From an uncultured Acidobacteriaceae bacterium (GTDB lineage: Bacteria; Acidobacteriota; Terriglobia; Terriglobales; Acidobacteriaceae): 64,000 bases of DNA. The notes below the pieces were generated by a model. The model saw only the letters and a program-made list of their open reading frames with translations, made no database searches and was not told the DNA's origin. Made by a program: the position numbers and the translations under genes. This document shows, in pieces, positions 16,545 to 40,941 of this stretch. Each line of letters opens with the position of its first letter. The stretch's first letter is position 1. The DNA is taken from the NCBI GenBank assembly GCA_963846795.1, contig CAWJXJ010000010.1, forward strand, positions 35,673 through 99,672, read 5' to 3'.

Positions 16545-16566
16545 ACCCTCATACAAAGGTTGGCCC

Positions 16567-17680: not shown

Positions 17681-17686
17681 AGGATT

Positions 17687-21206: not shown

Positions 21207-21209
21207 TTT

Positions 21210-24703: not shown

Positions 24704-24743
24704 CTGTCAGGGAAATGTCTTAGCCGGATAAAGGGTAGAGGCA

Positions 24744-25658
24744 ATGCATATATTTCTTCCAGTTGCAGGGATCAGCATCAATTTGCTCTTGCTCGTTGCA
24801 GTGGGCGCGGTGGTGGGTGTACTCACCGGTCTACTCGGAGTGGGCGGCGGTTTTCTGCTTACGCCAGTGTTGATGATGATTGGAGTGCCCCCTACAGTTG
24901 CTGCCGCATCCAGCACAAATTCGCTGGTGGCTACATCCTCCTCGGGCGTCGCGGCCCATTTTCGACTGGGGAATGTCGACTTAAAGCTGGGCAGCATAAT
25001 GCTGTTGGGAGGACTCGCCGGGGCAGAGGTAGGAGTCCAATTCATCAAATTTTTGCGCAGCACCGGAAATGCAGACTTCGTGATCACCGTCACCTATGTT
25101 GTGGTGCTGGGATCAGTTGGCAGCTTGATGTTCATTGAGAGCTTGTATAGCATGCATCGCGGCGTTATGGTCGCGGGCGGTTCCCGGAAAACGGAACGTA
25201 ACGGTCTGTTGCAACGGCTCCCCTTTCAAATGGATTTTCCCCGTTCCAACGTTCAGCATTCGGTTCTGGTGCCGTTCCTTTTGTGTTCGCTGGTGGCAAT
25301 TTTGGCGGCCATTATGGGAGTAGGTGGTGGTTTTATTATGGTGCCGATGATGGTCTATCTGCTGCGGATGTCAATGCACGTAGCCATAGGCACGGATCTT
25401 TTCCAGATCCTGTTTACCTGCGCCGGACTTACCCTCATGCAAGCGGTGAGTAACCAAACCGTCGACGTGGTGATTGCTCTGCTGTTGGCCGGCGGATCGA
25501 CTATAGGTGCACAGATCGGTGCAAGGCTCGCCCGGGTGCTGCGCGGAGATCAGCTCAAAATTGTGCTCGCCACCCTGGTTTTGCTGGTCACCGTCAAGAT
25601 GGGCTACAGCCTGATGGTCACGCCTTCAAACTTGCTGTCCTATGCTGGAGGGCAGTGA
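24744..25658 (+). CDS. TauE/SafE (TSUP) family anion/sulfite exporter-like permease.
   Basis: Two half-repeats carry GVGGGFLLTPVLM and GVGGGFIMVPMMVY. Polytopic membrane protein. Confidence 0.85.
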   Translation: MHIFLPVAGISINLLLLVAVGAVVGVLTGLLGVGGGFLLTPVLMMIGVPPTVAAASSTNSLVATSSSGVAAHFRLGNVDLKLGSIMLLGGLAGAEVGVQFIKFLRSTGNADFVITVTYVVVLGSVGSLMFIESLYSMHRGVMVAGGSRKTERNGLLQRLPFQMDFPRSNVQHSVLVPFLLCSLVAILAAIMGVGGGFIMVPMMVYLLRMSMHVAIGTDLFQILFTCAGLTLMQAVSNQTVDVVIALLLAGGSTIGAQIGARLARVLRGDQLKIVLATLVLLVTVKMGYSLMVTPSNLLSYAGGQ

Positions 25659-25703
25659 CATGGCAAGGCTTTATGCCTGCAAAGGTCTTAAAGAGAGGTA
25701 AAG

Positions 25704-26525
25704 ATGGCATTGCTGCTGATCTCACGAGGATCGTTTTCCGGCTGCCAGTTGATGAGCCAATGCCTGTCGAAATCGACTGGAATTCGGTGCCTAACCCGCG
25801 AGGATCTGATCGCGGCAGTGAATACCCATGGCGAACTGGCCAACAAAGTCCTAGCCAGTATGGCGAAGGCCGCCCACGATTACGGTCAGTTGAGCGCACT
25901 GCGCCGCCCCTACAAGATCCTGATGCAAAGGGCGCTTCTGGGATATGCGCGAGAGGGCGACATTGCCTACTTCGGTTACTCCGGACACCTGCTGCTGTCT
26001 GGGATTGCTCATGCGATCCGGGCGCGCGTCATCATGCCGGTGCAGCAGCGAGTCGAGCTGTTGAGGAAGAGCGAAGGGGTAACGGAGGCGGAGGCCCGCG
26101 AACGCATTTACCGGGAAGACGAGGAGCGCAGCCGCTGGACCCGCTTCATGTATGGCAAGAACCTAAGTGATCCTGCCCTGTTCGATACCTGTATCAACCT
26201 GAAACATATCTCCTACGGCACCGCCTGCTGCATCCTGCAAGGTCTGATGCAGCAACATGAGTTCCAGCCTACGCCCGAATCGTTGACCGCGATCGAAAAC
26301 AGCTATCTCTCCGCTTGCGTTTTAGCAGCGCTGGTTAGTAATCCCCAAACCGCCGAGCTTGCGATGGGAGCAACCGCCGAAGACGGCTGCGTAACACTCG
26401 AGGGTCCATATCTGCCTGAGGCAGAGCGCGCCGTGGTCCTCGACCTCGCCCATGCCGTTCCGGATATCGTGCAGGTGCGATACACCGAAGGGTACGCTCC
26501 GCCGTTTGACTTGGCTGCTTCATAA
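25704..26525 (+). CDS. Cytidylate-kinase-like family protein with a C-terminal BON-like region (paralog 2).
   Basis: MALLLISRGSFSGCQLMSQCLSKSTGI... Same architecture as 23894..24703 (RSRWTRFMYGKNLSDPALFDTCINL). Confidence 0.7.
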   Translation: MALLLISRGSFSGCQLMSQCLSKSTGIRCLTREDLIAAVNTHGELANKVLASMAKAAHDYGQLSALRRPYKILMQRALLGYAREGDIAYFGYSGHLLLSGIAHAIRARVIMPVQQRVELLRKSEGVTEAEARERIYREDEERSRWTRFMYGKNLSDPALFDTCINLKHISYGTACCILQGLMQQHEFQPTPESLTAIENSYLSACVLAALVSNPQTAELAMGATAEDGCVTLEGPYLPEAERAVVLDLAHAVPDIVQVRYTEGYAPPFDLAAS

Positions 26526-26536
26526 GGAGAACGGAA

Positions 26537-27316
26537 ATGGTTAGCGTCCCCCTCGAACCACAAGCTGCGGACGTCATCACCGACATCAAAGGTCTGCTCG
26601 CCAAGGGCGTCGACTGCGAAGAGAAGCAGATCGAGCTGATTGAAGAGCAGAACGAAATGGCGAAGCAGCGGACAGATGCCACAGCGAACCTGCTGCAGTA
26701 CTCCTCAACCACAGCCAGGCTCACCGAAGATCAGACAGCCATGGCGCGGGAAAGGACGTCGCTCACGCGGGCGCAGACCAATCTGTCGACGCGTAGCACA
26801 GAGCTGGCGTATATCCGCACCGACCTGGGTCGGGAACGCACTACCATGGCAGAACAGCGGACCGAGCTGGCGCTGCATCGCAATGAGCTCGCACGACAAC
26901 GTACAGGCCTTGCGTTTACAAGAACGCAACTGGCCAAAGACCGAAACCAGCTCGCTGACCAGCGCACCGTCCTCTCCCAACGACGGACCGATCTGGCGCA
27001 AGAGAGAAACGACTTTGCCGCCAGGCGAACCATGTGGGCGGTTACCCGCACCCGGCTGTCCGTGCAGAGAACCGAATTGGCCAGGGGCAGGACCTTTTTG
27101 GCGGTTATGCGAACCGGATTGGCCTTCCTGGTTCTCGGGCTAACGCTCTTCCGTTACTTTGGGATTTCCAAGTGGACGTTTTTTGATGCCGCCCTTGTGG
27201 CTTGCAGTTTGTTCCTGATTACGTGGGGTGCCAGGGGCTATCATCTGGCGTACAAGAATGATCGCCGGATTGAGGAGCGGCTCACTACCGATCCCGGGCT
27301 GAGGGCTTCCGTCTGA
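26537..27316 (+). CDS. DUF202/YidH-like membrane protein with an expanded heptad-repeat N-terminal domain.
   Basis: About 20 consecutive x-L-A-x-x-R-T heptads, then two hydrophobic helices (GLAFLVLGLTLFRYF, FFDAALVACSLFLITWG). Confidence 0.75.
   Translation: MVSVPLEPQAADVITDIKGLLAKGVDCEEKQIELIEEQNEMAKQRTDATANLLQYSSTTARLTEDQTAMARERTSLTRAQTNLSTRSTELAYIRTDLGRERTTMAEQRTELALHRNELARQRTGLAFTRTQLAKDRNQLADQRTVLSQRRTDLAQERNDFAARRTMWAVTRTRLSVQRTELARGRTFLAVMRTGLAFLVLGLTLFRYFGISKWTFFDAALVACSLFLITWGARGYHLAYKNDRRIEERLTTDPGLRASV
26654..27115 (+). repeat. Intragenic 21-nt-period (heptad) tandem repeat.
   Basis: EMAKQRT...AMARERT SLTRAQT NLSTRST ELAYIRT DLGRERT TMAEQRT ELALHRN ELARQRT GLAFTRT QLAKDRN QLADQRT VLSQRRT DLAQERN DFAARRT MWAVTRT RLSVQRT ELARGRT FLAVMRT, with no register break. 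Confidence 0.85.
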
Positions 27317-27341
27317 ACCTAGCACGGCGCGCAACGGGAGG

Positions 27342-29930
27342 TTGGCGTCCGCTCGTGTGTGCAACGTTACAGCGATGAACATTTGGTGGCGAAAGCGGAC
27401 GGCGGGCGAGGCTCCGGAATCGGCTGAGCAAAGCATCCGCAATAAGTACATCAGTTTTCGCGAATTGCTCTCGCTTAACAATGAATGCCTGGAATTGCTA
27501 GCCTCGGTGCAGGAAGACCTGCAATATGCCCTGCCCTGCAACGATGTCTTAGCCCACCGGACCGCTGCACTTTTCGCTCGGGCACAAAGCGTAGTGGAAA
27601 ATCTGGAGCGTCTTACCGGACGCAAGTATGAAAAGCTAACTCAAGCTGTCCGCCAGCAACATCAAGAAGTCGAGCGCCATATTGCCGCGTCCGAAGAGAT
27701 GATATCGCCCCGGCTCTCCGCCGGCCTCTCCGAAGTCAGCTTGAGCGATGCTGCGGAAATAGGCGGGAAGGCCGCGGCGTTGGCTGAGATCAAGAATAAG
27801 CTCGGATTGCCGGTCCCCGAAGGATATGTCCTTACCGCCGAAGCCTACCGCCAGTTTTGCGAGAAACCTCTGTGGACGCACATTCGCGATGCCACGCGAA
27901 ACGTGGACCTGAACGATCTTGATGCGTTGCACGTCACCTCCCTAAAGCTGATCGACGAAGTGCTGGCGAATTCGCTGCCTAGAGCGATTGAGGTTGCTCT
28001 GGCCGACCGGGCCATGCGACTGGCGAAAGATGGTCTGGGCCTGGCTGTGCGTTCCAGCGCCGTGGGGGAAGGCGGGGAGTGGAGCTTCGCGGGACAGTTC
28101 GTAAGCCTGATCAACGTTCTGCCGGAAAATCTGCTGGGGGCCTACAAGCAGGTGATTGCGGCACGATTCAGCGACAGAGCATTGTTCTACCGATTGTCGG
28201 CAGGTCTGACAGAAGTTGACACTCCACTGGCGGTGCTGTGTCTCCAGGTGGTTCGTGCGAGAGCTTCGGGGATCATGTACACGCGCGATCCCAATGACGC
28301 GGCCAGCGAGGCCCTGTGGATCACTGCGACCCATGGTCTTGGTATTGACATCGCCAATGGCGCCTCTCCCGCTGACTTGTTCTTGATGGCGCGCCGGCAT
28401 CCCTATCGTGTTTTGGAGCAGAAGATTGCTACCAAGCCCCAAAAGGTTGTTCCGGCAGAGTGCGGAGGGCTGCTGCGAATAGACGTCCCCCCCGAGGAGG
28501 CAGGCGCGCCCAGCCTCACGGAGAAGGAATTGGCGCTGCTCGCGGATTGGGGCATGCAGATCGAGAAGTACTTTGGAGCGGCACAGGACGTGGAGTGGGC
28601 CTTGGACGAGGACGGGCAATTGTGGATTCTTCAGTCCCGCCCACTGCTGACGGCGGATTCCGCCCGCATACGCGTCAGATCGAAAGTAAAACAGGCTGCG
28701 TTACTGGAGGGAGGTTACACGATTTTTCCGGGACTGGTCTCCGGCCCCGCCTACCTCGTGACAGAACGCTCAGCCTTGGCGAAAACGCCCCACGGGGCAG
28801 TGCTGTTCCTGCGACGGCCGTCACCGGAGATGGTAGAGGTCTTTCCCCGCATCGCCGGTCTAGTCGCGGAGTGGGGTAACGTGGCCGGGCATGGAGCGGC
28901 ACTATTGCGGGAGTTCAGGGTCCCGTCCGTCTTTCAGCTATCCGGAGCCTTCGAGCAGCTTCAAAATGGAGATCCGGTGAGTCTGGATGCGGTGCAACCA
29001 AGAATTTACACTGGTGCGCTCTGGCCCTCACCGGGGCCAAAATCGCCGCAGCACTTGCAGGTGCGGCGTGATGATGATCCTATCCGACGGTACATGCTCG
29101 AACTCAACCTGCTAGATCCTAACTCTATGAAATTCCGCCCTTCAGGCTGCAAGTCCGCTCACGACGTGCTGCGGTTTTGCCATGAAAAGGCGGTCGAAGC
29201 GATGTTCGAGATAGACGATAGAGAATTCGCCCGTCAAGCGCATTGTTCTAAGAAGTTGCTGGCAGCGGTTCCTATCAACCTTTGTGTGCTCGACTTGGGC
29301 GGCGGTCTGGTCGCTTCCGCTTCTTCATCATCGGAGGTGACGCCGGAGGAGATTGTCTCCCGTCCCTTTCAGGCGCTCTGGCAGGGCGTGACCCATCCTG
29401 GCGTGGCTTGGACTCGGACCATGCCGGCGAGCTTTACCGATATTGCCTTGGTAATGGCGACTTCTCTCTCCGCGCAAACCGGAGCGACCCGTGCGTTGGG
29501 CGAAAGAAGCTACTTGCTGATTGCAGACGAGTATATGAATCTCAATTCCAGACTGGCCTATCACTTCACTCTGGTTGATGCCTGCATGTCTGACGTTGCA
29601 GGCAATAACTACATTGCCTTCCGCTTTGCCGGAGGAGGCGCAACGCGACAAAGGCGCAATCTGCGGGCCTGCTTCATCGAAGCCTGTCTGGCGGACTATG
29701 GCTTCGTGGTCGACCGGCGTAACGATCTGGTAAATGCCTGGTTCAAGAAAGCGCCGGCCCGCGAAACCGGGGCCCATCTTGACATTCTCGGACGGCTGAT
29801 GGCCTGCACCAGTCAACTTGACATGTACATGACCAGCGACGAAGTGATGAGGTGGTATGTGCAACAATTCCTGGCCGGAAATTATAGTTTTCAGCTGGAA
29901 GAACATACGAAATCAACCACCCCTATCTAG
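27342..29930 (+). CDS. PEP-utilising enzyme family protein (pyruvate,water dikinase-like: PPDK_N ATP-grasp, swivelling His domain, unassigned approximately 300-aa C-terminal domain).
   Basis: GGKAAALAEIKNKLGLPVPEGYVLT (PEP/pyruvate-binding domain). AGLVAEWGNVAGHGAALLREFRVPSV (mobile His domain). An alternative start exists at 27375. Confidence 0.8.
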   Translation: MASARVCNVTAMNIWWRKRTAGEAPESAEQSIRNKYISFRELLSLNNECLELLASVQEDLQYALPCNDVLAHRTAALFARAQSVVENLERLTGRKYEKLTQAVRQQHQEVERHIAASEEMISPRLSAGLSEVSLSDAAEIGGKAAALAEIKNKLGLPVPEGYVLTAEAYRQFCEKPLWTHIRDATRNVDLNDLDALHVTSLKLIDEVLANSLPRAIEVALADRAMRLAKDGLGLAVRSSAVGEGGEWSFAGQFVSLINVLPENLLGAYKQVIAARFSDRALFYRLSAGLTEVDTPLAVLCLQVVRARASGIMYTRDPNDAASEALWITATHGLGIDIANGASPADLFLMARRHPYRVLEQKIATKPQKVVPAECGGLLRIDVPPEEAGAPSLTEKELALLADWGMQIEKYFGAAQDVEWALDEDGQLWILQSRPLLTADSARIRVRSKVKQAALLEGGYTIFPGLVSGPAYLVTERSALAKTPHGAVLFLRRPSPEMVEVFPRIAGLVAEWGNVAGHGAALLREFRVPSVFQLSGAFEQLQNGDPVSLDAVQPRIYTGALWPSPGPKSPQHLQVRRDDDPIRRYMLELNLLDPNSMKFRPSGCKSAHDVLRFCHEKAVEAMFEIDDREFARQAHCSKKLLAAVPINLCVLDLGGGLVASASSSSEVTPEEIVSRPFQALWQGVTHPGVAWTRTMPASFTDIALVMATSLSAQTGATRALGERSYLLIADEYMNLNSRLAYHFTLVDACMSDVAGNNYIAFRFAGGGATRQRRNLRACFIEACLADYGFVVDRRNDLVNAWFKKAPARETGAHLDILGRLMACTSQLDMYMTSDEVMRWYVQQFLAGNYSFQLEEHTKSTTPI

Positions 29931-30090
29931 TCGATAGTGTTGCTTTACTTGTGAGCTCACACCTGATCGTGTCGTGAATCACTGCAGTCTTTGGTGAGCT
30001 GTGTTTTGCTTCATTGCAGAGATCGGCGAACCGCAGTCGAGCGTGAGACACAGAAAGATGTACAGTTTTTACGCCGGTGATAGCAAACAC

Positions 30091-31047
30091 ATGAAATACC
30101 GTTGCACATCTCGAGCTCTTATTCATCTTTGCTCTGAATTGTTGCTGCTATGTATAGGTTGGAGCTGTCTGTCGCAGGCTGAAACTGTATCTATAAGCCT
30201 CTCACCCGACACTATCCAAATGGGCGCTTTCTATGATGGTTCAGCCATCAAGATTCAGGGTAGCGTTCCGCCTGATAGCGGCATAATTGTTGTGATTCGG
30301 GGCGATAAAAAAGATGAATTTTTCAATAAGAAGGGGCGTGTCGGCCCCATCTGGATTAATACCGACAAAGTCCATGTCGCAGCGGTGCCCGCGCTATTCC
30401 TGAGCTTCGCCAGCAGTGATATCAGCTCGCTCCTGAACCGGGAAAGTATCGACACTTATGAACTGGACGACGCTTCCATCGCCTCCCACCTGGTGTGCCG
30501 TATTCACTGCAAATGCTCCAGTCAGCAGTCCGCGAAGGCATCGGTGGATAGTTGTAAAGGCGTCGCCCCCGACCCGGCATATCAAGCTCTCATTCGAAAA
30601 AACTTCATCGCCCTCAAATCCAGCAGCGGAAGCTATCGCTCGTATCCAAACACGGTGCGACTCGCCCAAACAGGTGAGAGCCGCTACAATCTCACATTTG
30701 ACTGGATGAGGAATGCTCCGCCCGGTTCGTATCGTGTCGAGGTGTATGCCTGTCGAAATCGGGTCGTGATCGCCCGGGCTGACGCTTTGCTTCGTGTGGC
30801 CGAGGCTGGTTTCCCCGTGCAGATGGCTGCACAGGCCAAGAACCACCCCTTTGGCTACGGTGTATTCGCTGTTCTGACTGCCGTCATCGCCGGATTCGCC
30901 ATCGACGCTATAATCTCGCGGCTGCGTTTCAAGGGCCCGCGCCGGCCCCAAGCGGCGGAGCCAAGTTTGCCCGACCCCGAGCTGACAGCTCACGCTGAGT
31001 CACATTCTTCGGAGGTTCAACAGGAAGATACTGTGCATCACGTTTAA
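30091..31047 (+). CDS. Signal-peptide / C-terminal-TM protein resembling the TIGR02186 (Alph_Pro_TM) family.
   Basis: GIIVVIRGDKKDEFFNKKGRVGPIWINTDKV resembles the family core as I recall it. Has a C-terminal helix FGYGVFAVLTAVIAGFAIDAII. Confidence 0.5.
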   Translation: MKYRCTSRALIHLCSELLLLCIGWSCLSQAETVSISLSPDTIQMGAFYDGSAIKIQGSVPPDSGIIVVIRGDKKDEFFNKKGRVGPIWINTDKVHVAAVPALFLSFASSDISSLLNRESIDTYELDDASIASHLVCRIHCKCSSQQSAKASVDSCKGVAPDPAYQALIRKNFIALKSSSGSYRSYPNTVRLAQTGESRYNLTFDWMRNAPPGSYRVEVYACRNRVVIARADALLRVAEAGFPVQMAAQAKNHPFGYGVFAVLTAVIAGFAIDAIISRLRFKGPRRPQAAEPSLPDPELTAHAESHSSEVQQEDTVHHV

Positions 31048-31251
31048 ACAACTGCGCTTCAAAGACATCGCCGCTGGTTGAGGAGTGAATTCCTGGGCGC
31101 CGGCGTGCGCGCAATCACATCCCGATGTGACAAACAGCACTGAGAGTATCCATCCAGATAGGGATACTCAGCGTGGACGCTGTGCTCATCGCCGGACGTG
31201 CTCCTCTGAGCACCTTTGTCGAACTTCCTGCCCTCTGTCCAAAAGGACATC

Positions 31252-31767
31252 ATGAAGATCTCCCAAAAAGGGCTCTATGCGCTTGAGGCAATGACTATGC
31301 TCGCCCGTCACTATTGTGAGGGGCCGGTTAAGATCCACGACATTGCCGTCGAAGAGAACCTTCCGGAAAAGTTCCTGGAGATCATCCTTATTGAGCTGAA
31401 GAATGCACGCTTGGTCGAGAGTACACGGGGCGCGAGAGGTGGGTACCATCTGCGGCGGCCTCCTTCCGAAATCCGGGTCAGTGAGATTGTCCGCGTCATT
31501 GACGGACCAATCGCTCCCTTTGGCGATGTTGAGCAGCTACATACTTTTCTGCGGGAAGACGCTGCGCACGGCCCTCTCTACAGGTTGTTCCTGGACATCC
31601 GCGAGGCGGTCGCAAATATCCTGGACAACACCACGGTAGCTGACATCGCCGCTTTGGCGGCCCCAGTCGCTCCTGTGCCGGCGCGCAAAACGAGTCTCGG
31701 CGAGGAATCTGCAATCCCTCGAACCGGGCCGGTGGAGAACACGCCGAAGCGAACTCGCGTGTGTTGA
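31252..31767 (+). CDS. Rrf2-family transcriptional regulator (no Cys triad visible).
   Basis: MKISQKGLYALEAMTMLARH...IHDIAVEENLPEKFLEIILIELKNARLVESTRGARGGYHL. Confidence 0.85.
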   Translation: MKISQKGLYALEAMTMLARHYCEGPVKIHDIAVEENLPEKFLEIILIELKNARLVESTRGARGGYHLRRPPSEIRVSEIVRVIDGPIAPFGDVEQLHTFLREDAAHGPLYRLFLDIREAVANILDNTTVADIAALAAPVAPVPARKTSLGEESAIPRTGPVENTPKRTRVC

Positions 31768-32183
31768 GTTTTCGTAGGCGGTAATTCCCTGCGTCGAGAA
31801 TTCACCAAAGAACCCTTCGCGTAGAGCTGTAAAGCTGCACCACAGAAGCTCTGGCAAATAGGATTCGGCCTATTTCTAAGCGCCGGTCACCTTTGCAGCG
31901 AGCAGGCGTCGAAGTCATTCCATTTATCTTTTGACTTCTCAATTCCTTCCTCGTAACATCTAGCGCCAAGCAGCAGGAACGGCATCCAAAAGCGCCAGTG
32001 GCAATACAACTTGGCGCGACCCGGTTGCGCCGCATGCCTGTTCAGAGTTAAACGTGGGGTTTCAACCAAAAAGCAATCGCCTCCTTCGTCGGAGTCAATC
32101 GAGGGGCACGCGACAATAATTTCCCACGAGACGCCCGTCGCCTGATTCGTGTGAGTTCGATACATCTGTTAGTGGGGTTCACG

Positions 32184-33119
32184 ATGAACAGAACTCTTTG
32201 GTGGCTTCTCCTCTTGTTGCTAGTGAATGCCTCCGCCTCGCGAGGCTTCGCCGGTCCCAGGCAAGCGGGCAGCGCCCCTCCGCACACATCTCCCGCGCTT
32301 CCCGGCTCGGCCAGCGGGCAGTATGCAGAAAATGATATCTGTAAGACCTGCCATCAGGACCTCTGGGAGAAGCACTTCGCAGGCACGCCGCATGCGGCAT
32401 TGCTGAAGGGCGATCAGCATGGGTGCCAGTCCTGTCATGGTCCGGGACAGGCGCACGTCGACGGCGGAGGCGACGTTACCAAAATCATTCGGTTCGAAAC
32501 TCTAAGTCCCGCTCAGACCGCGGCGATTTGCATCGGCTGTCATCAGTCCAGCCTGGAGACCCAGAACTTTTCCAAGTCCGAGCATCTTGCTAACGGCGTG
32601 ACCTGCACTAGCTGCCACAACCCGCATAAATCCGCCGACGTGAATTTTATGCTCGTGAAGTCGCAGACTGAGCTTTGCTTTGGCTGCCACGCGGCGCAGA
32701 AGGCGCAATTCGCCCGGCCGTATCGCCATCGTGTGGAAGTTGGACTGATTCAATGCAGTGATTGCCACAACCCGCATGGAACCGAAGCCGGTCAGCAGGT
32801 CCGCACGGCCGCCGGACAGTTTGCCATTTGCACCAAGTGCCACACCGATACCATGGGGCCATTCGTCTTTGAGCATGCTCCGGTCAAGACTGATGAGGGA
32901 TGCCTCTCCTGCCACACGCCTCATGGCTCGACCAACCCGCGGTTGCTGCAGGTGAATAACGTGAATTTTCTCTGCCTGCGATGCCACACGCCCAACATGA
33001 ACGGGGCGGCTGGCAGGCCGGTAGGGCCCAACCACGATCAGTCAGCGAAGTACCAGGCGTGTACAACGTGCCACACCCAGATTCACGGTTCTAACTTTAG
33101 TCCGGTGTTCTTCCGCTAA
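32184..33119 (+). CDS. Periplasmic decaheme c-type cytochrome (MtrA/DmsE/PioA-like).
   Basis: Signal peptide plus ten CxxCH motifs: CKTCH, CQSCH, CIGCH, CTSCH, CFGCH, CSDCH, CTKCH, CLSCH, CLRCH, CTTCH. About 311 aa. Confidence 0.9.
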   Translation: MNRTLWWLLLLLLVNASASRGFAGPRQAGSAPPHTSPALPGSASGQYAENDICKTCHQDLWEKHFAGTPHAALLKGDQHGCQSCHGPGQAHVDGGGDVTKIIRFETLSPAQTAAICIGCHQSSLETQNFSKSEHLANGVTCTSCHNPHKSADVNFMLVKSQTELCFGCHAAQKAQFARPYRHRVEVGLIQCSDCHNPHGTEAGQQVRTAAGQFAICTKCHTDTMGPFVFEHAPVKTDEGCLSCHTPHGSTNPRLLQVNNVNFLCLRCHTPNMNGAAGRPVGPNHDQSAKYQACTTCHTQIHGSNFSPVFFR

Positions 33120-33128
33120 GAGGACGCT

Positions 33129-35483
33129 ATGCGATTCCCAACGATTTACCGATCGCATCAATGGCTCGGACTCGTGGTGGGCGGGCTTGTATTGACCACC
33201 CTAAGCTTCGCGCAGGCTCCATCGGCTTCTTCATCATCGTCGGCTACATCGGACGATGCGCAGGAAGGTAAAGACATTGGTGGCTTCCACGTGACGCAGT
33301 ATGTCGATTTTGGCGGGCGCATCAACGAGACCACGGGCAGCACGCCGATGTATGACACCTTGGTGAATTATCAAAGTGGTGCACGCATCCTCGATCAGTC
33401 GCTGACCATGCAGGCCAAGGACCAGCAAGAAATCTTCGACACACTTACGCTGTCGAGTTTTGGATGGGGCGGCGATCCCGAACAGGCGGCTCGGCTGCGG
33501 ATCGCGAAATATCACTGGTACAACTTCTCCGGCAGCTACCAGCACATGCAGAACTACTTCGACTACGACCTGTTGGCGAACCCTCTGAACCCGGCCCCAC
33601 CCGCAGGCAGTCCTTCGGCCCCGGTTCTGTTTTCACCGCACAGCTACTTCGACCGGCAGAATCTCTACAATTTCGATCTCGTCGTGCTGCCTATGCACAA
33701 GCTGTCTTTTCGAGCCGGCTACAACCGCAACCGCATCATCGGGCCCGCTTTCAGCAGCCTCCATGAGGGAACGGAAGCTCTGCTTGATCAAAACTGGAAC
33801 AACCAGTTAAACGGATTTCGCTTTGGCGCCGACTGGCGTGCGAACGAGAAAACGACAATCAGCTACACGCAGCTTTTGCAGTACTACACCGGCGGCACAA
33901 CCGATTCCCTTAGCCCGTATAACACCTGGCCCCTGTCGAATTCGACCTTGGTCAGCTTAGGACTGCCATGGTTCAACAGCGGCAGTCCGTGCTCGGCGCC
34001 CTTGAAGAACGGTATTGCCAATCCGTCTTGCAACGGCTTTCTGGACTATAGCCTTTATCAGCACGAGCACACATTTATGCCTACCGAGCAGCTCAACATG
34101 CGCTCGTCGTCGTTGAAGTGGCTCGACTTTAACGGGCAATGGGAGTACAGCCACGCGCAGATGAACACGCCGCTGACCGCAATCTTCAGCGGCTTGAGCA
34201 GTCGAACGGGTGAATTGGGTTACAACACCGCCGGCAGCAGCTCTAGTGCCAAGTGGAATTCTTCATCAGCAGATGTCTCTGCCACGATACATGTCAACGA
34301 TCGTCTGAGATTCGTCGATTCCTTCCGCTTCCGCAACTTCAGTGTCTCGGGCGATTTTCTCGACTATGAAAATAGTCTTTTCCCTGCTGCGCCGACCACG
34401 GCCTCGCTGCTGACGCCGCCGGCGTACTTCCCGGGAAATATCCTGACCCACGCGTCGGGTTCGCCGGCCGACGTTATCAACGACCTGTACGCCAGCCTGC
34501 TCGGGCAGTCATCCTACTCGAACGATTTCCAGGCGCAATACGACATCACGCGCAGCTTCGGTGTGCGCGCCGGATTTAACTGGACGCAGCTCAGCATTCA
34601 GCCCGGCGACAGCTACGAAGCGGCGCTCGGCGATATCTACTATCCCAACAATCCCAGCCGCGGTGAATGCGCAGGACAGCCCCTGAATGCAAATGGCAGT
34701 TGCACTTTTGCTGGTGTGCTCACCCCGTGGGCTGATCCGCTGAGCGGAACAACGCAACTCAACCGTTACACCGGCGTGCTTGGCGCCTGGTATCGCAAGG
34801 GAGCTTTGCACGCCGACGTCGACGCGGAATACGGCGCGGCCGATAACTGGATCTACCGCACCGACCCGCTGAACTTCCTCAACTTTCGGGGAAACGTCTC
34901 GTATGCTCCGCGTCCCTGGCTGATGCTGGGAGGCAATTTCACCTATCAAAAGGCGAGCAACAACACCCCCGGCATCAACCTCAGCCAGCACAATTACAGC
35001 ACCATGGTGAATGCCACCATCATGCCTAACAAGAAGTGGGGAATCGACCTGGCCTACAACTTCGACGCTATCCAGCAGAACCTCTTCCTCTGCTTCCAGG
35101 ACAGCACGCCCCCGGCCGGCTCGACGGCTTGCGCCGGCGACAGCACACTGCAGCAGACCTACGGCCTGTACCAGACGCACACGCAATATGGATATGTAGC
35201 GCTAACTTTGTCTCCATTGGACCGTGTCAGCATGCGCATGGGATACAGTATCGTGGATAACCAGGGCAACACGACAGACTTCAACGCCTTGCTTCCGCTC
35301 GGCCCGCTCGCCTCGACCTATCAGACTCCGCTGGCCACGGTAGAGGTGAAGCTGTACAAGGGCGTCGCCTTCAAGGGCGGCTGGAATTACTACCAGTACG
35401 GTGAAGGCTCATTCGTGGGTCCAACCGCGCCGCGGTATTTTCACGCCAACAACACCACCCTCGCGCTGCGCTACGCCTTTTAA
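33129..35483 (+). CDS. Large outer-membrane beta-barrel protein, MtrB/PioB-like partner of the decaheme cytochrome.
   Basis: 784 aa. Signal peptide, alternating aromatic/polar beta-strand pattern, terminal ...TLALRYAF. Starts 9 nt after the cytochrome gene. Confidence 0.7.
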   Translation: MRFPTIYRSHQWLGLVVGGLVLTTLSFAQAPSASSSSSATSDDAQEGKDIGGFHVTQYVDFGGRINETTGSTPMYDTLVNYQSGARILDQSLTMQAKDQQEIFDTLTLSSFGWGGDPEQAARLRIAKYHWYNFSGSYQHMQNYFDYDLLANPLNPAPPAGSPSAPVLFSPHSYFDRQNLYNFDLVVLPMHKLSFRAGYNRNRIIGPAFSSLHEGTEALLDQNWNNQLNGFRFGADWRANEKTTISYTQLLQYYTGGTTDSLSPYNTWPLSNSTLVSLGLPWFNSGSPCSAPLKNGIANPSCNGFLDYSLYQHEHTFMPTEQLNMRSSSLKWLDFNGQWEYSHAQMNTPLTAIFSGLSSRTGELGYNTAGSSSSAKWNSSSADVSATIHVNDRLRFVDSFRFRNFSVSGDFLDYENSLFPAAPTTASLLTPPAYFPGNILTHASGSPADVINDLYASLLGQSSYSNDFQAQYDITRSFGVRAGFNWTQLSIQPGDSYEAALGDIYYPNNPSRGECAGQPLNANGSCTFAGVLTPWADPLSGTTQLNRYTGVLGAWYRKGALHADVDAEYGAADNWIYRTDPLNFLNFRGNVSYAPRPWLMLGGNFTYQKASNNTPGINLSQHNYSTMVNATIMPNKKWGIDLAYNFDAIQQNLFLCFQDSTPPAGSTACAGDSTLQQTYGLYQTHTQYGYVALTLSPLDRVSMRMGYSIVDNQGNTTDFNALLPLGPLASTYQTPLATVEVKLYKGVAFKGGWNYYQYGEGSFVGPTAPRYFHANNTTLALRYAF

Positions 35484-35614
35484 ACATGCTTTAGCCTCGA
35501 CCGCTAAATCGTGAAGGCCGCGACTTCCGCACCATCAATGAGCGCTGAGCATACTCTCGACGAAGCGTTCCACGTGCTTGTGATGGGAGTCGGCCGCAGC
35601 AGCGCGAACAGCTG

Positions 35615-35670
35615 GAGCCCGGAGGGCGTGCCATGACAGCCCAGGATGGAGCGCAGCGGAATCCTGGGTA
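35615..35670 (-). repeat. REP-like element (inverted partner of 35925..35980).
   Basis: Its reverse complement TACCCAGGATTCCGCTGCGCTCCATCCTGGGCTGTCATGGCACGCCCTCCGGGCTC aligns with the 35925 copy and with the REPs flanking rayT. Confidence 0.7.
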
Positions 35671-35924
35671 ATCGGGTGAGAGATTAATGGCAGTCCCTCG
35701 GGGACGACACATGTTCCGGATGGAGCACTGCTTGAGCGATGCAGGGGAGTGCCAAGTTGACGGGCGGCTTCAGCCGCCGAGGGAATTCCCAAGCAATTAC
35801 CTCAGCGGCTGAAGCCGTCCCAGAGAAGGCGCTGGTTTCAATTGCACTCCTGAAGACGTGCTCCACCCTTTACGAAAGGACCCTGTCGCTGGCTGAAGCC
35901 GGCTCGTATTTTAATGGGCCAGCG

Positions 35925-35980
35925 TACCCAGCGTTCCGCTGCGCTTCACGCTGGGCTGTCATCGCACGCCCTTCGGGCTC
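35925..35980 (+). repeat. REP-like element.
   Basis: TACCCAGCGTTCCGCTGCGCTTCACGCTGGGCTGTCATCGCACGCCCTTCGGGCTC. Confidence 0.7.
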
Positions 35981-36288
35981 TAATTTTCCGCCTGGTAACC
36001 CAAACCGTCACTTGTGGCGGAAGAGGTGGGGAAGCAAGATTTAGAGACTCAGGGAGGTGGTGCGTTGATCGAAATCGGGGATCAGGTAAAAGAGATTGGA
36101 TCGGGCCGGCTTCTTACCGTCGTGGGGTACAGCAGTGCTACGAAGCAGTTTCAAGTTCAGCTGGGGAATAATTCAATCCCAATCAGGTTCGTGGACGAAG
36201 ATCGCCTTGAGCTTGTCACAAAGCGTGCCAATCATGACCAAGCTTGGCCGGGGTTGATACCCGAACATTGGATATTGCGATAAGCGGG

Positions 36289-36654
36289 ATGGCAAATACA
36301 CGCAGGATCATCGTGCTTCTCGCTCTCTTTCTGGCGGAAGGAATAGCGATCCAGGCCGACGTTAAGCCAGTGAAGGTCGCCCTCACCGCTGAAACACCTT
36401 CCTCCGTTCCTGCCATCCCGACAGCCGACATCGCTGGAGAATTCTCAAAACAATGCGCCAACGTGACTGTAACGCGAAACTCTGAAGCGGCGGATTATTC
36501 GCTCGAGGCGATAGGTGGTGACAGAACAAATCCGCACGGCCAGCGGCTCTACAAGTTCACCTTGTTTGACCATAGCGGAAACGTCGCGTTTACGACTGAG
36601 ACTCGTCAGCTTCACAATGCAATAAAGGACGTTTGTCACTTCATCAATAACTAG
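36289..36654 (+). CDS. Hypothetical secreted protein.
   Basis: MANTRRIIVLLALFLAEGIAIQA signal-like N-terminus. No family recognised. Confidence 0.45.
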   Translation: MANTRRIIVLLALFLAEGIAIQADVKPVKVALTAETPSSVPAIPTADIAGEFSKQCANVTVTRNSEAADYSLEAIGGDRTNPHGQRLYKFTLFDHSGNVAFTTETRQLHNAIKDVCHFINN

Positions 36655-36739
36655 CGCTCAACCGGGCCCTTTCGGCGCGTTATAATGCACACCCGGCCTC
36701 AGGATATTCACCGTTAACAAGCACGTAGAGAGTCTAAGC

Positions 36740-37099
36740 GTGGTCGTTGATAAACAACGGGCTTTAGAAAAATTATCGGAGCTGCAGATAAGGGAATCGC
36801 CGGTATTGATCTCTCTTGCAGTACGTGGGCCTTACGCTGTGATGTCGGGACACGACACAGTGACCGAAGTCTCAGAGGAAGGATTCACCATTATCGGCCG
36901 TTCCTCCAGACTGGTGTTTACGTTCGACAAGTCAATCGTGTTTGATCTGAGTGGTCACTACCCTCTCGGGGAGGTTAGACGGGACCTAGTCACCGAATCG
37001 GATCCATACTTCAGGCGCCTGAATCGCGTCCGCTCACTCTCAATCCGTTCCGAGCATGGCGAAGCAAATGTGGTATTCGGGGTAGGCAAAGAGACCTGA
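36740..37099 (+). CDS. Hypothetical protein.
   Basis: 119-aa ORF with no opposing-strand gene. No family recognised. Confidence 0.35.
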   Translation: MVVDKQRALEKLSELQIRESPVLISLAVRGPYAVMSGHDTVTEVSEEGFTIIGRSSRLVFTFDKSIVFDLSGHYPLGEVRRDLVTESDPYFRRLNRVRSLSIRSEHGEANVVFGVGKET

Positions 37100-37120
37100 T
37101 TTCGCAGGAGAAGCCGAGTC

Positions 37121-40100
37121 TCACGCCACAAAATACTTCGCTGCGGGATGGTGTACCACAATGGCGGACGTGCTTTGCTCGGGATCGAGCAGGTACCCCG
37201 TTGTCAGATGTACACCGATCGCCTCATCCGGATGGAGCAGCGCGAAAAGCTTCGTCTGGTCTTCGAGACTCGGGCACGCGGGATAACCGAATGAATAGCG
37301 CGAGCCGCGATACTTCTGGTGGAACAAATCGCGGATATGCGACGAATCGTCGCCAGCGATGCCGAGTTCTTCCCGCACCCGCTTGTGGTTCAGCTCGGCC
37401 AGCGCCTCGGCAGTCTCGACGCTCAGCCCGTGCAGGTAGAGATACTTCGTATACTCGCCGCCTTCGAAGAGTTTCTGCGTTTCATGCGAAGCCTGCGCAC
37501 CGATGGTGACGCAGGTCATGCCCAGCACGTCCATCTGGCCGCTGGATTTCTTGAGGAAGAAGTCGGAGATGCACAGGCCTCTTCCCTCTCGCTGGCGTGG
37601 GAAGGTGAAGCGCAGTGCCTCTGCCGGAGCAGCGTCGCCCTGCTTCCAGCCTTCTGGCAGGTTGTAGACGATGACGTCGTTGCCTTCGCCCTGCGCGCCG
37701 AAGTAGCCGTTCACGACTTTCGGCTCGAACCAGCCAGCGACGATGACTTCTTCTTCCAGCTCTTTCAGGATCGGCCGGTACTTCTCCGCGATCAGGCGCG
37801 CGTAGTCTTCCTGCGACGCGGTCTTGAGCTGCCACTGGTTCTTGAACAGCGCGGTCTCGTTGATGTACTGGAAGACTTCGTGCAAATCGAAGTCCTTCAC
37901 CACGCGTGTTCCCCAGAACGGCGGGTGCGGAATATTCGGCGCCGCTGGAATTTCGATGTTGGGACTTGTTCCGCCACCACCATCGCCCGCTCCGGCGACA
38001 GCCGCGCGAGCGAATTCTTTGACCTGCTTGCCTTCGGCGATGCGCTTCTCGCGCGCGCCATTCGGCGACGCAAGGTCTTCCATGATGTGCAGACCCGCGA
38101 AGGCATCATCGGCGTAAAAGATTCCGCCGGTGTATTCGCGGCGAAGGTCGTCTTCCACATACTTACGCGTGAGCGCCGCACCGCCGCAGATGACCGGGAA
38201 CTCAAGCTTCTGATGATGCAGGTCCTGCACCACGTACTTCATCTCGAGCGTGGACTTCACCAGCAGTCCGCTCAGTCCGATGGCGTCGGCCTTGTGCTCG
38301 ATGGCGGCGTTTATGATGGTGTCGGACGGCTGCTTGATGCCGAGGTTCACCACGCGATAGCCATTGTTGGTAAGGATGATGTCCACCAGGTTCTTGCCAA
38401 TGTCGTGGACGTCGCCCTTCACCGTGGCCAGCACGATGGTGGCTTTCTGGCTGCCCTCTTTCTTCTCCATCTTCGGCTCGAGATACGCGACCGCGGCCTT
38501 CATCACGCCGGCCGAGTCGAGTACCGAAGGAAGCTGCATCTTGCGCGCGCCAAACAGGTCGCCGACCGTGCGCATGCCGTCGAGCAGGACGTTGTTAATA
38601 ATGTCGAGCGGCGTGTAGGTCTCGAGCGCGGTCTCCAGCAGTTGGTCGAGCGTCTGCTTGTGCTCGCCGTCGCCAATCTGCTTTTCGCCGTTGATGATGA
38701 CCCACTTCAGCTTGTCTTCAATCGACAGCGTATCGACATGCGCGGTGGTCTTCTCTTCTTTACCCGTGGTGCCGGCAAAATACTTCATGTAGAACTGCAG
38801 TGGATCCCCGTTCGAGCGGTCCTGGAAGATGAGCTTGCGCGCCACATCGACTTCGGCCTCGGGAATCTTGTACAGCGGATAAATCTTGCTGTAGTTCACG
38901 ATGGCCATGTCGAGCCCGTTCTCGACCGCCTCGTGCAAGAAGACGCTGTTCAGCACCCGCCGCGCATAGGTGTTCAGACCGAAGGAAATGTTGCTGACGC
39001 CCAGCACAGTCTTCGCCAGCGGCATCTCCTGCTTGATCGCCTTCACCGCCTTCAGCGTTTCCATGCCGGCGGTGCGATAGTCTTCCTGTCCGGTCGAGAT
39101 CGGCAGCGTCAGCGCGTCGAAGATGAGATCGACAGGGCGAATGCCATACTTGTTCACCGCGAGATCGTAGATGCGTTTGGCAATGGCCAGCTTCTTCTCC
39201 GCCGTGAGCGCCATGCCGTCTTCGTCGATGGTCAGCGCGATTACGGCGGCCCCATAACGCTTCGCCATCGGCAGAACTTTCGAGGTGCGCTTCTCGCCGT
39301 CTTCCAGATTGATCGAGTTGATAATCGCCTTGCCGGGAATACGCTTCAGCGCTTCTTCGACTACGTCGGCCTCGGTCGAGTCGACCAGGATCGGCGCGGG
39401 CACGCGCGTGGCAATCTTCTCCAGGATGGCGCTGATGTAACCCTTCTCGTCCTCGCCCACGATGGCGCAGCATAGGTCGAGCATGTGCGAGCCTTCGTTC
39501 ACCAGCTTCTTGGCCAGCGTCAGGATCGCGTCGTAGTTCTGGGTGCGCACCATGTTCTTGAAGTGCTCGACGCGCGTGGTGGTATTCATCTCCTCGGCGA
39601 TCACCAGCGGCTTGGGATCGAGCTCAAGCGGAACCATCGAATACGCGCTCGCCGCCGCTCCGATGATCTTCGGATCACGTGCCTCAGGTTCGAGATTCGC
39701 GCAGGCATCGACGACAGCCTTCAGGTGCTCGGGCCGTGTGCCGCAGCAGCCGCCGACGACGCGCACGCCGTACTCGGTGATGAACTGCTTGTGATAGTGC
39801 GCCAGATCTTCTGGCGTGAGCTTGTACATCGCAACGCCGCCAACGTTCTCTGGCAGGCCCGCGTTCGGCAGAACCGACACCGGCTTGGGCGAATTCAGCC
39901 CCAGGTAGCGGACGCCGTCGTTCATCTCCTTGGGCCCGGTAGCGCAATTCATGCCGATAACGGCCACGTCAAACATCTCCAGCGTGGTGAGCGCCGCACC
40001 GATTTCGGTGCCCAGCAGCATTGTCCCCGTGGCCTCAAGTGTTACTTGAACTTGTACCGGGATCTGCTTCCCTGCCTGCTTCAACGCGTCGAAGATGCCG

Positions 40101-40609
40101 ACCAGCCCGGCCTTGGCCTGAAGAATGTCCTGGCAGGTCTCAAGCAGCAGAACATCCACGTCGCCTTCGATCAACGCGAGCGCCTGCTCGGTGTAGGCCG
40201 AGACCATATCGTCCCACTTGATGTGGCCTAGCGAGGGCAGCTTGGTGGTCGGACCCATCGATCCCGCGACAAAACGCTTCCGGCCATTCACCGAGAAACT
40301 GGAGGCGACTTCGCGCGCGAGCTTCGCAGCGGCCAAATTTACCTCGTGGACATCGTCTTCCATCTGATACTCGGCCATCACGATCCGCGTGGAGTTGAAA
40401 GTATTCGTCTCCACCACGTCGCAGCCGACCTTGAAAAACGCCGAATGAATGTCGGCGATCAGGTCAGGCCGGCTCAGTACAAGGATGTCGTTGTAGCCTT
40501 CTTTGCCGCGGAAATCGTCAATCGACGGGTTGCGAAGCTGGATGTTCGTGCCCATCGCACCGTCAAAGATGACGACGCGCTCTTGAATCGCTTTGAGATA
40601 TTCGCTCAT
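37121..40609 (-). CDS. metH: Cobalamin-dependent methionine synthase.
   Basis: 1162 aa. Hcy-binding, pterin-binding, B12-binding (GDVHDIGKNLV) and AdoMet-activation regions are all recognisable. Confidence 0.95.
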   Translation of the reverse strand: MSEYLKAIQERVVIFDGAMGTNIQLRNPSIDDFRGKEGYNDILVLSRPDLIADIHSAFFKVGCDVVETNTFNSTRIVMAEYQMEDDVHEVNLAAAKLAREVASSFSVNGRKRFVAGSMGPTTKLPSLGHIKWDDMVSAYTEQALALIEGDVDVLLLETCQDILQAKAGLVGIFDALKQAGKQIPVQVQVTLEATGTMLLGTEIGAALTTLEMFDVAVIGMNCATGPKEMNDGVRYLGLNSPKPVSVLPNAGLPENVGGVAMYKLTPEDLAHYHKQFITEYGVRVVGGCCGTRPEHLKAVVDACANLEPEARDPKIIGAAASAYSMVPLELDPKPLVIAEEMNTTTRVEHFKNMVRTQNYDAILTLAKKLVNEGSHMLDLCCAIVGEDEKGYISAILEKIATRVPAPILVDSTEADVVEEALKRIPGKAIINSINLEDGEKRTSKVLPMAKRYGAAVIALTIDEDGMALTAEKKLAIAKRIYDLAVNKYGIRPVDLIFDALTLPISTGQEDYRTAGMETLKAVKAIKQEMPLAKTVLGVSNISFGLNTYARRVLNSVFLHEAVENGLDMAIVNYSKIYPLYKIPEAEVDVARKLIFQDRSNGDPLQFYMKYFAGTTGKEEKTTAHVDTLSIEDKLKWVIINGEKQIGDGEHKQTLDQLLETALETYTPLDIINNVLLDGMRTVGDLFGARKMQLPSVLDSAGVMKAAVAYLEPKMEKKEGSQKATIVLATVKGDVHDIGKNLVDIILTNNGYRVVNLGIKQPSDTIINAAIEHKADAIGLSGLLVKSTLEMKYVVQDLHHQKLEFPVICGGAALTRKYVEDDLRREYTGGIFYADDAFAGLHIMEDLASPNGAREKRIAEGKQVKEFARAAVAGAGDGGGGTSPNIEIPAAPNIPHPPFWGTRVVKDFDLHEVFQYINETALFKNQWQLKTASQEDYARLIAEKYRPILKELEEEVIVAGWFEPKVVNGYFGAQGEGNDVIVYNLPEGWKQGDAAPAEALRFTFPRQREGRGLCISDFFLKKSSGQMDVLGMTCVTIGAQASHETQKLFEGGEYTKYLYLHGLSVETAEALAELNHKRVREELGIAGDDSSHIRDLFHQKYRGSRYSFGYPACPSLEDQTKLFALLHPDEAIGVHLTTGYLLDPEQSTSAIVVHHPAAKYFVA

Positions 40610-40941
40610 GCAGGTTCACTTAGTATGGCAGATTCAGCGCCTTACAACGAGTCGCGAAGGGCATGCTCCATTCGATGTTTATACGTCACTCTTCGCACTT
40701 CGCTCTTCGCCTTTCGCTGTTCACTTCCAGAGGTACTGCGCGAAGACGCAGAGCGCCAATTCCCAAAATGGCACTCGCTGTATGAATTTCGAAGCCTTGA
40801 GCGCGCTTTCTGCTTTTTCCCATAGCTGGTGCGGAATAAGCTTGGCTCGTACGGCTTGGTTCCCTTCCTTAAAGCAGCTTTTTTCCGCGCCCTTTGTATT
40901 TCACTGGCTGCTCGCCCGGGCAGTCATCGAAGGAGAAAATC

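Follow-up and report, generated by a model that had tools for sequence, protein, structure and literature searches.

A 64-kb window of DNA from an uncultured Acidobacteriaceae bacterium of soil or peat (the whole stretch that we analyzed) encodes, at positions 31252-35483, a decahaem c-type cytochrome of the MtrA/DmsE family, a large outer-membrane beta-barrel directly downstream of it, and an Rrf2-family regulator upstream. Our analysis indicates that the cytochrome and the barrel most probably act together as a porin-cytochrome conduit with two components, like MtrAB, PioAB and MtoAB, and carry electrons across the outer membrane. An initial annotation of the window had recognized the architecture of MtrAB/PioAB/DmsEF-type conduits in these genes, and that proposal is now supported by the family of the cytochrome, the predicted fold of the barrel, an hhalign match of the barrel to MtrB and the constant pairing of the two genes in related genomes. 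The conduit principle is not new, and acidobacterial MtrA/PioA homologues and Mtr-like clusters have already been published; what is new is a very divergent barrel that lies outside the curated models.

Arrangement of the cytochrome and barrel genes

The features of the locus, all on the same strand, are as follows.

31252-31767, forward strand: Rrf2-family regulator, 171 amino acids (aa); Pfam Rrf2, E 2.6e-31
32184-33119, forward strand: MtrA/DmsE-family decahaem c-type cytochrome, assigned by sequence, putatively periplasmic, 311 aa, ATG start, ten CxxCH motifs
33120-33128, forward strand: spacer of 9 nucleotides (nt) between the cytochrome and barrel genes, carrying the Shine-Dalgarno-like GAGGA of the barrel gene
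33129-35483, forward strand: outer-membrane beta-barrel, by sequence a remote MtrB homologue, 784 aa, ending in ...TLALRYAF

This layout agrees in all coordinates with the initial annotation, which had described a protein of about 311 aa with exactly ten CxxCH motifs, followed after 9 nt by a 784-aa barrel ending in LRYAF, and had placed an Rrf2 gene upstream on the same strand, where we also find its open reading frame (ORF). The cytochrome gene stops with a TAA at 33117-33119, and the GAGGA lies five nt before the barrel ATG at 33129. The 9-nt spacing suggests that the two genes are co-transcribed, possibly with coupled translation. A gap of 416 nt separates the Rrf2 gene from the cytochrome gene. 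In a promoter and terminator scan of positions 30900-36300, site numbers were at chance level, with one promoter-like site (31931-31959) against 1.7 expected, and no terminator-like site fell between the cytochrome and barrel genes or between the Rrf2 and cytochrome genes, the latter interval also lacking any convincing promoter-like site. Around the pair, an Rfam scan detected neither riboswitches nor RNAs of other kinds. If translation began instead at a GTG at 32151, the cytochrome would be 11 residues longer (322 aa); the gene called at this place in a near-identical public contig (L002, ena:ERZ25039458:contig_39467, 220 kb) also encodes 311 aa. The barrel of L002 is 100% identical to that of the window at the protein level, and L002 represents the same strain or a very close one.

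The decahaem cytochrome

All 20 cysteines of the cytochrome fall within its ten CxxCH motifs, and the protein has neither a CxxxCH nor a CxxCK. Such a cluster is not a product of chance, since a six-frame survey of the 64 kb, with 60 aa as the minimum ORF length, finds CxxCH in just four other ORFs, one copy each. The N-terminus (MNRTLWWLLLLLLVNASASRG), with its hydrophobic signal-like segment MNRTLWWLLLLLLVNASA, reads on inspection of the sequence as a Sec signal.

By sequence, the protein is a decahaem of the MtrA/DmsE/PioA type. A search with the DmsE-family model TIGR03508, which the initial annotation had suggested, returned 252.2 bits against a cut-off of 192.2, with the match spanning profile positions 3-256 of 258. 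The second-best curated family is that of GSU2203 (NF041028), at 211.9 bits against a cut-off of 325, and Pfam Paired_CXXCH_1 matches three times. The best sequence match in the PDB is MtrA (6r2q_A, E 1.7e-35, residues 24-306), and a single HMMER alignment places all ten CxxCH motifs in register with those of 6r2q_A. Identity to one Shewanella MtrA is 33% over 280 aa. Beyond the motifs there are 13 histidines, nine of which, in our reading of the alignment, align with MtrA histidines and are candidate distal ligands.

A soluble cytochrome of the NrfB or OTR type, the grouping that the initial annotation had named as counting against a conduit, could be ruled out. The NrfB models scored 55-67 bits (NrfB and NrfH together, 51-67 bits), far under their cut-offs, and in the PDB search NrfB was matched at E 1.5e-8, against 1.7e-35 for MtrA. 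The comparison therefore came out for MtrA/DmsE.

The barrel is a remote homologue of MtrB

No Pfam family matches the barrel at E<=1, and its sole NCBIfam match, to the C-terminal portion of the GSU2204 family (NF041027), reaches 27 bits against a cut-off of 350 and covers residues 585-655 only. Sequence searches of the PDB with the barrel alone and with two family profiles found no real relative, and did not find MtrB (6r2q_B). Relatives of the barrel itself are numerous: the family comprises 1268 clusters at 90% identity in one database and 1390 clusters at 50% identity (E<=1e-3) in another. Wherever the source gives a name, it is 'hypothetical protein', and the assigned taxa are mostly Terriglobales, Korobacteraceae, Acidoferrales and Bryobacteraceae. 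Among 47 diverse members, 28 weakly match the GSU2204 family (best E 2e-9). In one of the 47 the barrel is fused to a monohaem cytochrome c domain (Cytochrome_CBB3, E 2e-11), which recalls the CXXCH-bearing GSU2204 family.

Comparison of profiles was more informative. For the MtrB side we assembled PF11854 barrels in two ways, by using MtrA to locate loci in Shewanella, Marinobacter and Ferrimonas and by a profile search. An hhalign comparison of 72 members of the barrel family with 23 PF11854 proteins gave a probability of 95.0% (E 3.5e-8, score 76), with 561 colinear columns running to both C-termini. Ten controls, two with reversed and eight with block-shuffled sequences, gave probabilities of at most 1.4%, E of at least 0.037 and scores of at most 28. 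When only three MtrB-family sequences were used, the probability was 38%.

The predicted structure points in the same direction. AlphaFold2 gave a predicted local distance difference test score (pLDDT) of 43 when supplied with 29 close homologues (64-100% identity) and became usable only with 72 diverse representatives, from which the model reached a pLDDT of 89.1 and a predicted template modelling score (pTM) of 0.81. In this model a signal helix and a disordered stretch extend to about residue 45, after which the chain is all-beta. As read from the DSSP string rather than counted from coordinates, it forms about 26 strands, with no plug and with both termini periplasmic; short turns were taken as periplasmic and long loops as outward, and the segments 477-491 and 495-504 were merged. 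The C-terminal LALRYAF is a beta-signal, with the alternating hydrophobic and aromatic residues typical of outer-membrane barrels. There are six cysteines, in the pairs 288/301, 514/525 and 655/668, and no CxxCH; all three pairs lie in long outward loops of the model. The pairs C288/C301 and C655/C668 are kept across the diverse family, whereas C514/C525 is invariant only among close relatives.

A Foldseek search of the PDB with this model returned MtrB (6r2q_B) as the top match, at E 6.1e-17 and a TM score of 0.58 normalized to the query or 0.69 to MtrB. The matches below it were all to RagA or to 22-strand TonB-dependent receptors, none with an E better than 1e-10 and with TM scores of 0.29-0.39 (query), so that MtrB leads the TonB receptors by six orders of magnitude in E and about twofold in TM. 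The initial annotation had proposed a strand prediction for the barrel, which yields the plug-less, approximately 26-stranded form described above, and had singled out a TonB-type barrel or an unrelated porin as the outcomes that would contradict a conduit; modelling decided for an MtrB-like barrel, of a predicted size that would accommodate a decahaem. A TonB-type transporter or generic porin was ruled out, since Plug, TonB_dep_Rec and porin Pfam domains are all absent from the barrel, the modelled barrel is plug-less with a strand count too high for either, and the TM scores to TonB receptors are only 0.29-0.39. Taking together the hhalign match with its clean controls, the MtrB-like fold and the GSU2204-family matches, we therefore conclude, at the level of sequence, that the barrel is a remote MtrB homologue beyond the reach of current family models.

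Conservation of the pair in related genomes

The pair is conserved well beyond this strain. At least 569 confirmed stretches were found in species-representative genomes, and the best 80 of these were examined; counts out of 81 refer to loci with upstream DNA, two from look-ups included, and synteny counts refer to 79 loci other than L002, with neighbors considered within 8 kb. The best 80 stretches are all from Acidobacteriota, mostly long-read soil metagenome-assembled genomes (MAGs) labelled Acidobacteriaceae or Korobacteraceae, and the carriers include Candidatus Sulfotelmatobacter MAGs (L069, L080). In every one of the 81 loci, down to 41% barrel identity, the gene immediately before the barrel gene encodes a decahaem homologue and has the same orientation.

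Beyond the pair, the recurrent neighbors are inner-membrane cytochromes, found in a minority of loci. A CbcL-like gene, named as such by its domain architecture, adjoins the pair in 25 of 81 loci and encodes a protein of about 660 aa with 11 CxxCH motifs and a cytochrome b domain of the FdnI/HydC type. An ImcH-like gene, named in the same way, adjoins it in 27 of 81; its product is a membrane cytochrome (about 510 aa) in which a NapC/NrfH domain is combined with 6 CxxCH motifs. Among the closest relatives (86-91% barrel identity), 9 of 13 loci have CbcL-like and ImcH-like genes in the place that the Rrf2 and sulfur genes occupy in the window. Apart from these cytochromes, nothing beyond the pair is syntenic across the 81 loci: in the 79 other loci there is no synteny for sat, TauE, the PPDK-like gene, Alph_Pro_TM, Rrf2, metH or the small downstream ORFs, all of which recur only in L002. 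Two further features accompany some of these loci. A radical-SAM/SPASM gene, whose product may be a maturase, stands beside the CbcL-like and ImcH-like genes in 16 loci, including L001 (3627-4889, reverse strand), and L011, from a close relative, encodes near its pair (4338-6407, reverse strand) a 689-aa ORF with 19 CxxCH motifs, the sole large extra multihaem in the 81 loci.

Five MAGs hold two copies of the pair on different contigs (L006/L007, L046/L061, L018/L023, L050/L052 and L032/L074), and in the L006/L007 genome one copy has CbcL-like and ImcH-like neighbors and the other does not. Because two copies occur in these genomes, the copy in the window may be a second, relocated one.

The same neighborhood data bear on whether the pair could be a delivery module, in the way that Shewanella DmsEF supplies DmsAB. 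The pair would then not be the terminal reductase itself but would feed one that is extracellular, has no haem and is encoded elsewhere in the genome. The best curated family of the cytochrome is indeed the DmsE family, and in Ferrimonas a homologous pair (L085) is followed by molybdopterin oxidoreductase genes. We nevertheless consider this role very improbable, as no molybdopterin or other extracellular reductase gene adjoins the pair in the window, and nothing other than the occasional inner-membrane cytochrome keeps its company across the 81 loci.

A model for electron transfer and its direction

The arrangement suggests a route for electrons across the outer membrane. The 311-aa decahaem would be exported to the periplasm and, by analogy with MtrAB-type systems, would thread into the lumen of the 26-strand barrel, where its ten bis-histidine haems could form an insulated wire of about 8 nm spanning the membrane. 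No other ORF with more than one CxxCH is present in the 64 kb, and thus no MtrC-like cytochrome; likewise, no MtrC-like ORF stands beside the pair in the 81 related loci. The initial annotation had noted the missing outer decahaem and proposed a two-component variant resembling PioAB or MtoAB, a description that holds at this locus. Because no MtrC-like surface cytochrome is encoded nearby, we suggest that the outermost haem, at the mouth of the barrel, would itself be the site of exchange with extracellular redox species in solution or colloidal form, among them chelated Fe(III), shuttles, and the humic or quinone moieties of organic matter. That the cytochrome inserts into the barrel is inferred by analogy, and inference likewise underlies the direction in which electrons flow and the acceptor used in nature.

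Conduits of the MtrAB type are reversible in principle. By analogy, outward flow, that is, respiration of extracellular acceptors, appears the more likely direction here, because about 30% of the related loci place CbcL-like and ImcH-like genes beside the pair, and in Geobacter CbcL and ImcH pass quinol electrons to the periplasm. In the opposite direction, the pair would take up electrons as PioAB and MtoAB do; extracellular Fe(II), reduced humics or a syntrophic partner would supply them and the quinone pool would receive them, for instance to reduce sulfate, adenosine 5'-phosphosulfate (APS) or oxygen. The two-component layout without MtrC is that of PioAB and MtoAB, homologues of PioA/MtoA are on record for Acidobacteriia (PMC10654088), the CbcL family includes MtoC of Fe(II) oxidizers (PMC6295460), and the AprBA, Qmo-like and Sat proteins encoded in the window need a source of reductant. 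Against this stand the ImcH-like genes found with the pair in 27 of 81 loci, Geobacter ImcH serving outward transfer to high-potential acceptors, and the fact that no gene for a protein like PioC, a high-potential iron-sulfur protein (HiPIP), or like MtoD was noticed adjoining the pair. The cytochrome, moreover, presumably lacks the long N-terminal extension of PioA. The sequence itself fixes no direction, and on balance we regard inward flow as unlikely.

Several observations weigh against a conduit of this type, or against the direction we favor. The MtrB/PioB models PF11854 and TIGR03509 both miss the window barrel (E<=1), so that the TIGR03509 search recommended in the initial annotation failed to recognize it; across 47 diverse relatives TIGR03509 matches none at E<=0.01, and PF11854 weakly matches just two (best E 0.0056). 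The barrel has no N-terminal CxxC, as the initial annotation had correctly observed, and its first cysteine is C288, while a CxxC at C46/C49 is invariant in our alignment of MtrB from Shewanella, Marinobacter and Ferrimonas. The barrel family as a whole is known from sequences and predicted models alone. An inner-membrane quinol oxidase, a periplasmic shuttle cytochrome and a surface cytochrome are absent from the 64-kb window, and the labels 'CbcL-like' and 'ImcH-like' given to genes in other genomes reflect domain architecture, not comparison with the Geobacter proteins. Finally, the presence of MtoC of Fe(II) oxidizers among CbcL-family proteins (PMC6295460) leaves the direction of flow only weakly constrained.

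Sulfur genes and the Rrf2 regulator

The window also encodes part of a sulfur-metabolizing pathway.

13959-23783, forward strand: sulfur cluster of aprB, aprA, a CxxCxxCC-domain protein, a QmoB-like protein, a QmoC-like protein and sat
8543-10201, reverse strand: GltD/DsrL-like NAD(P)-binding Fe-S flavoprotein, 552 aa; NF009410, 588 bits; C-terminal ferredoxin domain

Within the cluster, aprB, aprA and sat score above curated cut-offs. The gene for the CxxCxxCC-domain protein lies at 16838-17680, the QmoB-like protein is a 788-aa protein of the HdrA/MvhD type, and the QmoC-like protein scores 206 bits, under the cut-off of 300. Neither dsrAB nor a separate qmoA-sized ORF was seen in the 64 kb. 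The GltD/DsrL-like flavoprotein, whose gene lies in a stretch (8000-12000) with a guanine-plus-cytosine content of 63% against about 57% elsewhere, may correspond to the DsrL described from Acidobacteria with dsr genes (PMC6018796). The initial annotation had placed the conduit adjacent to dsr, apr and sat; the apr and sat genes are indeed present, but no dsrAB is visible in the window and the end of sat is 8.4 kb, with seven genes between, from the cytochrome gene.

The regulator matches TIGR00738 at 105.9 bits (cut-off 73.3), and its best score, 111.7 bits, is to the CymR model, although this is under that model's cut-off of 195. Its only cysteines are C22 and C171, and the three-cysteine site for an Fe-S cluster found in members of the IscR/NsrR type is absent. 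Because it is CymR-like and has no cluster site, its type agrees better with a regulator of cysteine and sulfur assimilation than with one of a cytochrome operon.

These genes raise the question of whether the pair is tied to sulfur, as an outer-membrane route to or from extracellular elemental sulfur, polysulfide or metal sulfides under Rrf2 control. The pair shares its strand with aprBA, the qmo-like genes and sat and lies within 8.4 kb of this cluster, a CymR-like Rrf2 gene is directly upstream, and the Candidatus Sulfotelmatobacter MAGs carry the pair. Yet sat, aprA and Rrf2 are all missing from the 8 kb around the pair in the 79 other loci, L002 being the only locus that has them; at 86-91% barrel identity the relatives have CbcL-like and ImcH-like genes there instead; and the 416-nt gap and the cluster-less, CymR-like nature of the regulator better suit control of cysteine and sulfur assimilation. 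Such a role is exceedingly improbable in our estimate. The functional coupling of the pair to the Rrf2 and sulfur genes that the initial annotation implied is thus not borne out by other genomes, and stems from co-occurrence in one genome. We likewise rejected a sulfur-linked or Rrf2-regulated operon, given that no synteny extends beyond the pair in the 79 other loci. The closeness of the pair to the sulfur genes is unconserved and gives no ground for assuming an operon; it is coincidental in gene order and physiologically suggestive.

Other features of the window

Downstream of the barrel gene lie nested inverted repeats. In the outer one, 35604-35670 pairs with 35925-35991 (67 nt, 82% complementary), and in the inner one, 35762-35787 pairs with 35795-35820 (26 nt, 88%). 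Two small ORFs, 35491-35712 on the reverse strand and 35739-36044 on the forward strand, are probably not genes, because they are located on the repeat arms and their peptides are alike. The repeat region (35604-35991) could be an element resembling a miniature inverted-repeat transposable element (MITE) or a structured terminator region.

When window positions 23800-40700 are compared with L002, metH and the PPDK-like gene are each split into two genes in L002 and there are extra TauE fragments, which suggests long-read assembly errors or strain differences. Within the window itself, a heavy-metal P-type ATPase in the region 55645-58675 on the reverse strand appears to be split over two ORFs, 56801-58675 (HMBD and E1-E2 ATPase) and 56115-56846 (the hydrolase part), and is followed by a monohaem cytochrome c ORF (55645-56115, reverse strand); this split may reflect a frameshift or an assembly error. 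The sole Rfam match in the window, an Acido-Lenti-1 small RNA at 46137-46191 on the forward strand (50.5 bits against a gathering score of 37), fits an acidobacterial origin.

Implications for acidobacterial respiration

Acidobacteria dominate many soils and peats, and their anoxic respiration is poorly understood. Peat metagenomes yielded acidobacterial MtrA homologues in 2013 (PMC3669403), PioA/MtoA homologues followed for Acidobacteriia in 2023 (PMC10654088), and homologues of ImcH and of CbcL have also been reported in the phylum (PMC6295460). Among Acidobacteria, true MtrCAB has been found in Bryobacterales and unclassified Acidobacteriia only (PMC8805035). More recently, four Mtr-like architectures of Acidobacteriota were found to be expressed in deep peat (bioRxiv 10.64898/2026.05.27.727921). 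A stand-alone decahaem-barrel pair would escape that survey, because its search was seeded on extracellular multihaems.

The present locus implies that annotation tools that seek MtrB/PioB undercount the potential for extracellular electron transfer in Acidobacteria, because neither Pfam nor NCBIfam has a name for the barrel family; the undercount could be mended with a profile of its members. The co-occurrence of a complete MtrAB-type module with AprBA, Qmo-like proteins and Sat in one genome is also worth noting. In the first description of dissimilatory sulfur metabolism in peat Acidobacteria, Hausmann et al. (2018; PMC6018796) found the dsr-bearing genomes to be without known metal-reduction genes. 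A bolder reading of our data would be that the stand-alone pair is the main outer-membrane conduit of soil and peat Terriglobia, overlooked because its barrel is 'hypothetical', that it operates with no surface cytochrome, and that in sulfur-cycling lineages it couples Apr, Qmo and Sat (and Dsr) to extracellular Fe(III) or humic acceptors or donors. If true, the pair would supply the 'missing' metal or organic-matter reductase of those dsr-bearing peat Acidobacteria. We put this forward as a speculation that, for all its reach, is probably wrong.

Comparison with known conduits

The closest structural reference is MtrA-MtrB as seen in MtrCAB of S. baltica (6R2Q). The decahaem is homologous to MtrA over its full length, with the ten CxxCH motifs aligned, and the predicted barrel shares with MtrB a plug-less form of about 26 strands, MtrB being both its best structural match and its hhalign partner at 95% probability. 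Gene order (cytochrome, then barrel) and tight spacing are also those of the Shewanella, Marinobacter and Ferrimonas loci (L083-L085). The differences lie mainly in the barrel, which exceeds the MtrB-family proteins that we retrieved by about 85-130 aa in length, is about 11-14% identical to them and lacks their N-terminal CxxC; unlike MtrB, it has three cysteine pairs in its outward loops and is unmatched by PF11854 and TIGR03509. In contrast to MtrCAB, the window pair has no surface decahaem of the MtrC/OmcA type, and the inner-membrane partners found in its relatives resemble Geobacter CbcL and ImcH, not the CymA of Shewanella.

PioAB of Rhodopseudomonas palustris and MtoAB of Sideroxydans and Gallionella resemble the pair in having two components, a decahaem of the DmsE/MtrA/PioA group and no surface cytochrome. 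PioB and MtoB, however, belong to the MtrB_PioB family, from which the window barrel is set apart by the family models rather than by direct alignment. Those systems take up electrons from Fe(II) with PioC or with partners of the MtoD/CymA type, which are not seen here.

Within the same phylum, a close counterpart is MtrCAB as found in Bryobacterales (Group 5 of Baker et al., 2022, PMC8805035; 'EET2' of Fiorito et al., 2026, bioRxiv 10.64898/2026.05.27.727921), which likewise combines a DmsE-family decahaem with a barrel without a recognized domain. By Foldseek, the EET2 barrel matches 6r2q_B with a TM score of 0.68, E 1.5e-16 and 11.9% identity (supplement, bioRxiv 10.64898/2026.05.27.727921), nearly equal to the window barrel, and some distant members of the window barrel family are named Bryobacteraceae. 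EET2 differs in being a four-gene cluster that also encodes a periplasmic tetrahaem and a surface decahaem resembling MtrC, while the window pair stands alone and occurs in genomes of the Terriglobales type (Acidobacteriaceae, Korobacteraceae). Identity with EET1, the Terriglobales system of the same preprint, was considered and rejected, since EET1 is a porin-NHL-cytochrome cluster.

Two Geobacter systems complete the comparison. GSU2203 (OmcK) and GSU2204 of Geobacter sulfurreducens likewise place a decahaem beside a barrel of the MtrB/PioB type (PMC13188914), the family label that GSU2204 carries in that work, and GSU2204 was reported to be up-regulated with hematite and magnetite (PMC4070692). 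The scores of the window proteins, 211.9 and 27 bits, are far under the cut-offs of these families (325 and 350), and GSU2204-family barrels carry a CXXCH and sometimes selenocysteine, whereas the window barrel has no CxxCH. The Pcc conduit of Geobacter (OmbB-OmaB-OmcB) shares the principle of a periplasmic multihaem in an outer-membrane barrel, and the CbcL-like and ImcH-like neighbors found in relatives of the pair are as in Geobacter pathways. In Pcc, however, the cytochromes are an octahaem and a dodecahaem lipoprotein, and the porin is smaller and has no sequence relationship to MtrB (PMC4245776), whereas the acidobacterial pair combines an MtrA-type decahaem with a barrel predicted to be MtrB-like.

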